Shown: positions 54,741 to 56,958 of the stretch, piece after piece | How the letters are laid out: the number at the start of each line of letters is the position of its first letter | Numbering within the stretch: position 1 is the stretch's first letter | Source of the DNA: Escherichia coli O127:H6 str. E2348/69 | GTDB taxonomy: Bacteria > Pseudomonadota > Gammaproteobacteria > Enterobacterales > Enterobacteriaceae | Length of the DNA: 64,000 nucleotides | Assembly: GCF_000026545.1 (NCBI RefSeq) | Contig: NC_011601.1 | Strand: one strand, 5' to 3' | Program-made: the position numbers and the translations under genes | The notes under the pieces: model-generated | The model's input: only the letters and a program-made list of their open reading frames with translations | Told to the model about the DNA's origin: nothing | Database searches by the model: none

Positions 54741-56958
54741 GTTATTCTCTGCATTCAGAAAAAATAAAATCTGGGATTTCAACGGCGGCATCCATCCACC
54801 GGAGATGAAAACCCAGTCCAACGGTACGCCCCTGCGCCAGGTACCACTGGCGCAGCGTTTTGTCATTCCACTGAAACAACATATTGGCGCTGAAGGTGAG
54901 TTGTGCGTTAGCGTCGGCGATAAAGTATTGCGCGGCCAGCCGCTTACCCGTGGTCGCGGCAAAATGCTGCCTGTTCACGCGCCCACCTCGGGTACCGTTA
55001 CGGCTATTGCGCCCCACTCTACGTCTCATCCTTCAGCTTTAGCTGAATTAAGTGTGATTATTGATGCCGATGGCGAAGACTGCTGGATCCCGCGCGACGG
55101 CTGGGCCGATTATCGCTCTCGCAGTCGCGAAGAGTTAATCGAGCGCATTCATCAGTTTGGTGTTGCCGGGCTGGGTGGTGCGGGATTTCCGACAGGCGTT
55201 AAATTGCAGGGCGGTGGAGATAAGATTGAAACGTTGATTATCAACGCTGCTGAGTGCGAGCCGTACATTACCGCCGATGACCGTTTGATGCAGGATTGTG
55301 CGGCTCAGGTCGTAGAGGGTATCCGCATCCTTGCGCATATTCTGCAGCCACGCGAAATTCTTATCGGTATTGAAGATAACAAACCGCAGGCGATTTCCAT
55401 GCTGCGCGCGGTGCTGGCAGACTCTCACGATATTTCTCTGCGGGTGATTCCCACCAAATATCCTTCTGGCGGTGCTAAACAATTAACCTACATTCTGACC
55501 GGGAAGCAGGTTCCACATGGCGGGCGTTCATCCGATATCGGCGTATTAATGCAAAACGTCGGCACCGCTTATGCAGTGAAACGTGCCGTTATTGATGGCG
55601 AGCCGATTACCGAGCGTGTCGTGACGCTGACTGGCGAAGCAATCGCTCGCCCGGGCAACGTCTGGGCACGGCTGGGGACGCCAGTGCGTCATTTATTGAA
55701 TGATGCCGGATTCTGCCCCTCTGCCGACCAAATGGTGATTATGGGCGGCCCGCTAATGGGCTTTACCTTGCCGTGGCTGGATGTACCTGTCGTAAAGATT
55801 ACCAACTGTCTTTTGGCTCCCTCTGCCAATGAACTTGGCGAACCACAGGAAGAACAAAGTTGCATCCGTTGTAGCGCCTGTGCTGACGCCTGCCCTGCGG
55901 ATCTTTTGCCGCAACAGCTGTACTGGTTCAGCAAAGGTCAGCAACACGATAAAGCCACCACGCATAACATTGCCGACTGCATTGAATGTGGAGCTTGCGC
56001 GTGGGTTTGCCCGAGCAATATCCCCCTGGTGCAATATTTCCGTCAGGAAAAAGCTGAAATTGCGGCTATTCGTCAGGAAGAAAAGCGCGCCGCAGAAGCC
56101 AAAGCGCGTTTCGAAGCGCGCCAGGCTCGTCTGGAGCGCGAAAAAGCGGCTCGCCTTGAACGACATAAGAGCGCAGCCGTTCAACCTGCAGCCAAAGATA
56201 AAGATGCGATTGCTGCCGCTCTGGCGCGGGTGAAAGAGAAACAGGCCCAGGCTACACAGCCTATTGTGATTAAAGCGGGCGAACGCCCGGATAACAGTGC
56301 AATTATTGCAGCACGGGAAGCCCGTAAAGCGCAAGCCAGAGCGAAACAGGCAGAACTGCAGCAAACTAACGACGCTGCAACCGTTGCTGATCCACGTAAA
56401 ACTGCAGTTGAAGCGGCTATTGCCCGCGCCAAAGCACGCAAGCTGGAACAGCAACAAGCCAATGCGGAGCCAGAACAACAGGTCGATCCGCGCAAAGCCG
56501 CCGTCGAAGCCGCTATCGCCCGTGCCAAAGCACGTAAGCTGGAACAGCAACAGGCCAATGCGGAGCCAGAAGAACAGATTGATCCGCGCAAAGCTGCCGT
56601 CGAAGCGGCTATTGCACGCGCCAAAGCGCGCAAGCTGGAACAGCAACAACAGGCTAATGCGGAACCAGAAGAACAGGTTGATCCACGCAAAGCCGCCGTC
56701 GAAGCGGCTATTGCCCGTGCCAAAGCACGCAAGCTGGAACAGCAACAGGCTAATGCAGAGCCAGAAGAACAGATTGATCCGCGCAAAGCCGCCGTCGAAG
56801 CGGCTATTGCCCGTGCCAAAGCGCGCAAGCTGGAACAGCAACAGGCTAATGCGGAGCCAGAAGAACAGATTGATCCGCGCAAAGCGGCAGTTGCTGCGGC
56901 TATTGCCCGCGTTCAGGCCAAAAAAGCCGCCCAGCAAAAGGTTGTAAACGAGGACTAA
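54733..56958 (+). CDS. rsxC: Rsx/Rnf electron transport complex subunit C (NADH-binding, Fe-S), with C-terminal repeat array
   Basis: ORF 54733..56958 (741 aa); two CxxCxxCxxxCP clusters; C-terminal Ala/Gln/Lys-rich tandem repeats. Confidence 0.95.
56389..56955 (+). repeat. in-frame 96-bp (32-codon) tandem repeat array inside rsxC: five near-identical units plus a diverged terminal unit
   Basis: units begin with GATCC(A/G)CG(T/C)AAA at 56389, 56485, 56581 (99 bp, extra CAA), 56680, 56776, 56872; encode [31 protein letters not shown](I/V). Confidence 0.85.

Follow-up and report, generated by a model that had tools for sequence, protein, structure and literature searches.

In Escherichia coli O127:H6 str. 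E2348/69, the 3' end of rsxC consists of an array of five full repeat units of 96 or 99 bp followed by a diverged terminal unit of 84 bp, all in frame, at positions 56389-56955 of the window, i.e. the stretch of 64,000 nucleotides of contig NC_011601.1 (assembly GCF_000026545.1) that was analysed. The array is an in-frame minisatellite, already known as the variable-number tandem repeat (VNTR) ms11 and as the RSXC repeat, and it encodes a beads-on-a-string C-terminal extension of the cytoplasmic protein RsxC. Each unit combines an invariant basic, Ala-rich stretch of 18 residues, predicted to be helical, with an acidic, Pro-containing linker of about 14 residues in E. coli. Judged from their sequences, the units are not fresh copies but have long been diverging under strong purifying selection on the peptide, and it is the RsxC peptide, not the DNA or another reading frame, that this selection targets. 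Taking array anatomy, copy-number variation and selection on the peptide together, we hold this description to be very probably correct. The array as such matters little as a finding, being a long-used typing marker with published polymorphism. The invariant basic helix, the genus-specific acidic linkers and a motif that turned up in RnfC proteins only provide a testable handle on the C-terminal extension of gammaproteobacterial RnfC.

Architecture of the repeat array

Tandem Repeats Finder detects a single array, at 56388-56909, with a period of 96, 5.4 copies, 89% matches, 1% indels and a score of 807. Unit borders were set by splitting the RsxC translation at each DPRK; all units lie on the + strand. 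Unit 1 (56389-56484) is the most diverged full unit, and unit 2 (56485-56580) consists of the 18-residue core and a 14-residue linker. Unit 3 (56581-56679) has 99 nucleotides, with an extra CAA (Gln) codon, and ends in Val instead of Ile. Units 4 (56680-56775) and 5 (56776-56871) are 96.9% identical. The terminal unit (56872-56955) has 84 nucleotides and 28 residues and is followed by the stop codon at 56956-56958. An earlier note on this DNA, made from the sequence alone, had described an array of five almost identical 32-codon units, one with an extra CAA, plus a diverged last unit. Its coordinates, unit count and extra codon are confirmed by Tandem Repeats Finder and the DPRK split, the unit peptide it quoted is exact for units 2, 4 and 5, and the open reading frame (ORF) list, Pfam, NCBIfam and genome annotations all agree with its placement in the 3' part of rsxC.

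The terminal unit carries the ancestral form of the motif; its conservation extends across genera and to all alleles encountered, a collapsed one (see below) among them. An assembly artefact, which the earlier note had named as grounds for refutation, is rejected for E2348/69, as the 901-bp segment spanning the array is identical in three separate O127:H6 chromosome records. The Gln run at 56641-56652 reads QQQ or QQQQ, depending on one extra CAA, and differs between units and between strains. This polymorphism yields RsxC alleles of 740 and 741, or of 708 and 709, amino acids.

Divergence of the units and selection on the peptide

The description of the repeat as near-perfect in the earlier note holds for the peptide but not for the DNA. 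Pairwise nucleotide identities among the full units range from 85.4 to 96.9%, neighbouring units share exact tracts of 41 bp at most, and the terminal unit is 63% identical to unit 5. There are 19 variable columns among the full units, three of them at first, none at second and 16 at third codon positions. By the Nei-Gojobori method, the synonymous divergence (dS) between units is about 0.43-0.50, with about a third of the synonymous sites differing. The ratio of non-synonymous to synonymous divergence (dN/dS) amounts to 0.02 for the core (codons 1-18) and to 0.09 for the linker (the other 14 codons).

A conserved core with genus-specific linkers

The identical 18-residue core is present in nearly every unit of RsxC from Escherichia, Salmonella, Citrobacter, Klebsiella, Raoultella, Kosakonia and relatives, and the terminal unit is also conserved in these genera. 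The linkers following the core differ by genus in both sequence and length, measuring 10-29 residues and giving periods of 26-47. Gene conversion cannot account for motif identity across genera.

One unit and the terminal unit were used to search 1.84 billion representative proteins (E ≤ 0.001), which gave 89 motif matches. All 22 of the matches that were read are RnfC/RsxC proteins or fragments thereof; named carriers are Vibrio vulnificus, Aeromonas caviae, Pseudoalteromonas, Paraferrimonas, Celerinatantimonas and Erwinia. From 162 distinct instances, a 21-residue consensus, DP[KR]KAAV[AE]AAIARAKA[KR]KAAQ, was obtained; its information content is high at every position, the alanines included, and drops sharply on both flanks. 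In the 128 proteins for which charge was calculated, the core has a net charge of +4 to +5 and the linker, 9-37 residues long, is always net acidic (-2 to -8). No Pfam family covers the unit (best E-values of 0.27-0.81, at chance level), nor does a solved structure (best Protein Data Bank (PDB) E-value of 0.74, likewise at chance level).

Two degenerate, older copies of the motif are located upstream of the array, on the + strand. The first, a proto-copy at 56197-56250 (residues 489-506), coincides with an AlphaFold2-predicted helix and is conserved in distant RnfC tails, Ala496 and Arg499 being invariant in an alignment of 27 sequences. The second, at 56296-56373, is a basic helix predicted for residues 522-547 and preceded by a conserved PDNS. 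Both recur in the RnfC tails of Vibrio, Aeromonas and Pseudoalteromonas. The laboratory-evolved substitution rsxC-I525F, from a phosphate-starvation study, was judged null or neutral (PMC4759930); Ile525 falls within the second degenerate helix, upstream of the array.

Copy number among E. coli strains

Of 5,426 complete E. coli genomes, 5,424 gave a match to the rsxC query and two did not; eight matches sit on records typed as plasmids, and the window is 100% identical to E. coli E2348/69. Surplus BLAST places per genome result from off-register alignment inside the array; the genome with the collapsed array shows only one place. As the earlier note had expected, copy number varies between strains. 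Among fetched genomes, two full units are found in APEC IMT5155 (RsxC of 644 amino acids), four in S19-141 and MS10860 (708/709), five in K-12 and E2348/69 (740/741), six in O157:H7 (772) and seven in Ecol_AZ146 (806), to which the collapsed allele is to be added. One database protein of 937 amino acids has 11 full units. All alleles with two to seven full units are in frame and have the same terminal unit. Unit frequencies were taken from two samples, of 40 and of 60 genomes, spaced evenly by rank among the 5,424 matching ones, with lengths verified on fetched loci. The estimated shares of genomes are ~60% for five full units, ~20% for four, ~7% for six and ~10% for seven.

Unit 1 is orthologous in every strain compared: its identity to unit 1 of other strains is 0.92-1.00, versus 0.82-0.92 to their other full units. 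The terminal unit is likewise orthologous across strains, whereas interior units give shifted best matches. Unit 3 of E2348/69 is identical to unit 6 of the seven-unit allele of Ecol_AZ146, and unit 4 is 99% identical to unit 7 of that allele. The stable unit 1 and terminal unit, combined with the shifted interior matches, indicate gain and loss of whole interior units. A closely related B2 allele with four units (MS10860) has only one unit, its fourth, to which units 4 and 5 of E2348/69 both correspond; being the closest pair, units 4 and 5 suggest the most recent duplication.

Whole units may be gained or lost by unequal recombination or by replication slippage between units. As a unit measures 96 or 99 bp, a change in copy number never disturbs the reading frame. 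Because of the synonymous divergence, exact tracts between units are short (20-41 bp), close to the lower length limit at which RecA-dependent exchange is efficient in E. coli. Such short tracts would make copy-number changes infrequent and let alleles track clonal lineages; the reported agreement between repeat type and multilocus sequence typing (MLST; see below) fits a low rate of change. The earlier note had regarded the array as prone to slippage and unequal recombination; synonymous divergence probably makes it more stable than this implied. A phase-variable contingency locus was considered and rejected, since units of 96 or 99 bp are multiples of three and all alleles examined are in frame, with the same C-terminus.

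The collapsed allele is that of CFSAN004176 (NZ_CP014583.1; 801-2543 of the fetched locus). In this allele, an in-frame collapse has left one hybrid unit and a product of about 580 amino acids; the junction between unit 1 and the terminal unit lies in a tract of 8 bp common to both (GCCCGCGC). All alleles encountered, even the collapsed one, retain at least one copy of the motif. The Prokaryotic Genome Annotation Pipeline (PGAP) calls the CFSAN004176 rsxC a pseudogene "missing C-terminus", despite the intact frame. The rsxD gene of the same strain is annotated as frameshifted, and the record may hold assembly errors.

Predicted structure of the tail

For the tail alone, without an alignment, AlphaFold2 predicts one 24-residue helix per unit, with a predicted local distance difference test score (pLDDT) of 75-83 for the helices and of 54-66 for the linkers, and a predicted template modelling score (pTM) of 0.25. 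For the full-length protein, with the 27-sequence alignment, the unit helices have a pLDDT of 55-65 and the linkers of 32-47; the catalytic core is predicted confidently in this model, and so is a long C-terminal helix of residues 432-482. This helix is located at the start of the tail (56026-56178, + strand; pLDDT 76-91, and over 90 in the tail-only run). No docking of the unit helices onto the catalytic core is predicted. The helical tail proposed by the earlier note is supported as a prediction, with a helix of ~22-24 residues per unit in both runs.

Both AlphaFold2 runs break at each Pro-containing linker; a single continuous alpha-helix of the ER/K type, or a long coiled coil, is rejected on this basis. 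An amphipathic membrane anchor was rejected as well. The RsxC core resembles the helices of MinD, FtsA and RNase E segment A in being a short basic helix on a peripheral membrane-associated protein, but its hydrophobic moment is 0.04-0.09, compared with 0.41-0.66 for the other three. Its mean hydrophobicity, computed as for those helices, is about 0.

The E. coli tail begins with a segment homologous to the C-terminal helix of Azotobacter vinelandii RnfC; in a phmmer alignment with the latter protein (PDB 8AHX chain C), the match reaches residue 498 of RsxC. This long helix of A. vinelandii RnfC is reported to contact RnfB and RnfH, with a function that is not understood (PMC12174285). With its 496 residues, the A. 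vinelandii chain has no DPRK array. RnfC structures align with RsxC up to about residue 498 only, and the E. coli array lies past anything covered by a solved structure.

In composition, the RsxC tail is comparable to that of TolA, which has an Ala/Lys/Glu-rich, helical, low-complexity region. Domain II of TolA forms one long continuous periplasmic helix, whereas the RsxC tail is cytoplasmic, is cut into short helices by Pro-containing acidic linkers and contains a motif conserved position by position. The in-frame repeat of TolA is, like that of RsxC, a marker for multiple-locus VNTR analysis (MLVA; CVN004, listed as CNV004; PMC11773471).

Possible role of the tail

We propose that the conserved helix may be a specific docking motif, of which several copies would be presented on a flexible arm. 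The arm would start from the long RnfC C-terminal helix, which is positioned against RnfB in the solved homologue and would be next to RsxB in E. coli. As partner we envisage a conserved protein that either belongs to the Rsx/Rnf complex or serves it; changes in copy number would modulate reach and avidity and would not turn the enzyme on or off. Conservation of each alanine, of Val7 and of Ile11 across orders points to docking, since a non-specific charge effect or a spacer would be expected to preserve composition. Tentatively, we prefer to read the tail as flexible and as carrying a multivalent motif for protein docking. With somewhat more reserve, we suggest that it may be a previously undescribed, RnfC-specific docking motif, present in 1-12 copies in Enterobacterales, Vibrionales, Aeromonadales and Alteromonadales, for which the partner could be an Rsx/Rnf subunit or a client such as SoxR or flavodoxin, and that copy number might tune the finding of this partner. 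If true, this would link a routine typing marker to oxidative-stress physiology through its copy-number alleles.

Several points weigh against this picture. The docking role is read from the conservation pattern alone, and AlphaFold confidence for the repeat helices is moderate to low. In addition, gene conversion inside arrays makes units more alike and exaggerates how conserved they look within a genome. Alleles with 2-11 units persist in nature, as do Erwinia alleles reported to have 0-5, so any dosage effect must be mild. With regard to the exchange of units, the 8-bp join in CFSAN004176 fits slippage or assembly error better than homologous exchange, and the percentages given for copy number are estimates from rank-spaced samples rather than a full census.

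Alternative explanations

The basic cores could act non-specifically through charge, binding nucleic acid, polyphosphate or the acidic head groups of lipids and keeping the cytoplasmic face of Rsx close to such surfaces, or forming a general electrostatic lure for acidic redox proteins such as flavodoxin or ferredoxin. The high positive charge of the core, with Arg and Lys all round the helix, its multivalency and the fact that linkers are net acidic in all 128 proteins, suggesting selected charge patterning, fit such a role. It is nevertheless unlikely: a polyanion binder would conserve composition and not every alanine, Val7 and Ile11, the adjoining acidic linkers largely neutralise each unit, and the low hydrophobic moment makes amphipathic membrane insertion unlikely. 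We are equally doubtful about a structural (entropic) spacer, or a self-associating block polyampholyte whose basic helices and acidic linkers would fold back on one another or on adjacent complexes and cluster Rsx complexes without an external partner. Positive and negative blocks do alternate strictly in every genus despite the differing linkers, AlphaFold gives no fixed tertiary arrangement (as judged from the pTM of the tail and the low pLDDT of the linkers), a wide range of copy numbers is tolerated, and an alanine stripe on one face (Ala5, Ala9, Ala12 and Ala16) could allow helix to pack on helix. However, the variation of linker length between 9 and 37 residues argues against a defined repeating fold, and a spacer leaves both the residue-by-residue invariance of the core and the retention of the terminal unit unexplained.

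A neutral low-complexity expansion, conserved in appearance through recent duplication and gene conversion, would agree with the wide variation of copy number without obvious loss of the gene and with the absence of a Pfam family or solved structure covering the unit; in one study, deletion of rsxC alone was also without effect on viability or acetate production (PMC4759930). Such an expansion is, however, very improbable. About a third of the synonymous sites differ between units and the amino acids hardly do, the same 18 residues are kept across genera in which the linkers are completely replaced, and the motif persists in Vibrionales and Alteromonadales; the identity of the core across genera and its low dN/dS largely refute neutrality. 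The conserved element might also be DNA, RNA or a protein in another frame instead of the RsxC peptide, a notion to which we give almost no credence. Most of the array is also open in three other frames: an antisense ORF of 233 amino acids (56181-56882, - strand) with Cys/Ser/Ala/Leu-rich repeats, a second antisense ORF of 436 amino acids across the array (55753-57063, - strand) and a +1-frame ORF of 216 amino acids (56297-56947, + strand). One of the antisense frames shares its wobble positions with rsxC, so that variation at third positions is not enough by itself to dismiss that frame. When the RsxC tail peptide was subjected to 1,000 random synonymous recodings, with the units recoded independently, the antisense frames were open for at least the observed length in 42% and 23% of cases; their openness thus follows from the composition of the RsxC tail. 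The +1 frame was open that long in 4% of recodings, a value that independent recoding of the units makes an understatement of chance, and the only +1-frame translations among the proteins read are frameshifted RsxC entries. We judge all three ORFs to be spurious, in agreement with the earlier note, which had given 56181-56882 as an example. The synonymous variation between units is at odds with a conserved DNA or RNA element. Rfam gave no credible match over the array, the one match, to isrG (56363-56476, - strand; 15 bits against a gathering threshold of 100, E = 0.2), being judged due to chance. Scans of the array revealed no promoter-like sites and terminator-like sites only at chance level. 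A hidden gene or RNA element on either strand is rejected on the recoding, Rfam and promoter and terminator results.

Correspondence to ms11 and to the RSXC repeat

The ms11 primers (PMC11773471, PMC8215070) match exactly and uniquely in the window, on either side of the array: the forward primer at 56238-56257 (+ strand) and the reverse primer at 56987-57006 (- strand), giving an amplicon of 769 bp for E2348/69. Published ms11 typing reports a 96-bp unit and six alleles (0, 4.5, 5, 5.5, 6 and 7), with a Simpson index of 0.68 (PMC11773471, PMC8215070). Primer pair, unit length and polymorphic copy number are those of the array, and the ms11 alleles of 4.5-7 copies agree with the unit counts found here in complete genomes. 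At the DNA level, there is no difference from ms11 (rsxC/ydgN), which belongs to an E. coli/Shigella panel together with ms06, ms07, ms09, ms21, ms23 and ms32. The typing literature uses ms11 as a length marker, without analysis of the encoded peptide.

The same repeat underlies RSXC typing, in which 83 E. coli genomes were classified by a 32-residue RSXC repeat into types R4-R7 (Jothi et al., BMC Genomics 2026, PMC13185298). The units were described as starting with DPRK and ending in the variable motifs QQV, EQV, EPV or EQI, with 4-7 DPRK units per protein, and repeat type was reported to agree with MLST (PMC13185298). The counting appears to include the terminal unit; by this counting, the E2348/69 allele would be a 6-repeat type with QQV/EQV/EQI ends. 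In Erwinia amylovora RsxC, a 40-amino-acid repeat present in 0-5 copies was reported by the same group (Ham & Park, Sci Rep 2023, PMC10587187). The E. amylovora array begins at the same residue, 553, and its core is nearly the same. Both reports give length polymorphism and correlations, and both state that functional effects are untested. To these, our analysis adds the distinction between an invariant core and a genus-specific linker, the low dN/dS and the restriction to RnfC across several orders. Three other papers are unrelated to the repeat: one on EF-P deals with a PPE motif and with a terminator within rsxC, one on H. influenzae describes a 41-bp direct repeat at an insertion site that has nothing to do with the rsxC array, and an O157 machine-learning study merely lists RsxC as a feature.

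The rsxC gene and its operon

The rsxC coding sequence (54733-56958, + strand) encodes 741 amino acids and is identified by the ORF list, Pfam, NCBIfam and the rsxC annotation in 5,424 E. coli genomes. RsxC is the NADH/FMN/2x[4Fe-4S] subunit C of the Rsx (Rnf-type) complex, FMN being flavin mononucleotide. Pfam finds RnfC_N (PF13375, in the 1e-32 range), Complex1_51K (PF01512, 3e-48), SLBB (PF10531) and, at residues 373-430, Fer4 matches, all domains ending before residue ~445. NCBIfam assigns the protein to the RsxC equivalog NF003454 (867.6 bits against a cut-off of 345, residues 12-570), and TIGR01945 scores 595.9 bits against a cut-off of 245.95. The cysteines of the two [4Fe-4S] motifs (Cys377, Cys380, Cys383, Cys387, Cys416, Cys419, Cys422 and Cys426) are invariant in the 27-sequence alignment. 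The N-terminal barrel-sandwich, NuoF-like FMN/NAD(H), SLBB and ferredoxin-type domains that define RsxC/RnfC are all present.

The + strand ORFs at 53581-59975 are contiguous or overlapping and correspond to rsxA-B-C-D-G-E followed by nth; the matching E. coli loci carry RefSeq annotations for rsxA, rsxB, rsxC and rsxD. The start of rsxC overlaps rsxB by 8 bp (54733-54740). The ATG of rsxD, at 56959, directly follows the TAA of rsxC (56956-56958), and because there is no spacer between the two genes, changes in array length never alter the context of the rsxD start.

Assembly and database artefacts

The earlier note had also expected the array to cause assembly collapse. This is plausible, on indirect evidence: frameshifted or chimeric RsxC entries, the collapse in CFSAN004176 and the large share of short fragments, with 71 of the 89 representative motif matches being fragments of less than 300 amino acids. 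Inside the array, two public E. coli RsxC entries (P0033 and P0054) switch to the +1 frame. Another (P0004) is chimeric, with part of the tail repeated and an out-of-frame end, and in a fourth (P0002) 28 residues of the catalytic domain are duplicated internally. All four have the appearance of artefacts of sequencing or assembly.

At the array, assembly from short reads and variant calling go wrong, yielding fragmented, frameshifted or chimeric RsxC and spurious clusters of rnfC "mutations". In olaquindox-selected E. coli analysed with short reads, 14 rnfC "mutations" (missense changes and frameshift indels) were reported, together with a non-frameshift deletion in rsxC (PMC7696260). This pattern looks like mis-mapped reads or a real contraction in the array rather than 14 independent mutations. 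For annotation, in-frame contractions of the array can be mislabelled as pseudogenes, and the long overlapping ORFs should not be called genes. In O157:H7 Z1767 (NZ_CP062733.1), the rsxD gene that follows a six-unit rsxC is annotated as a frameshifted pseudogene (2920-3376 of the fetched locus).

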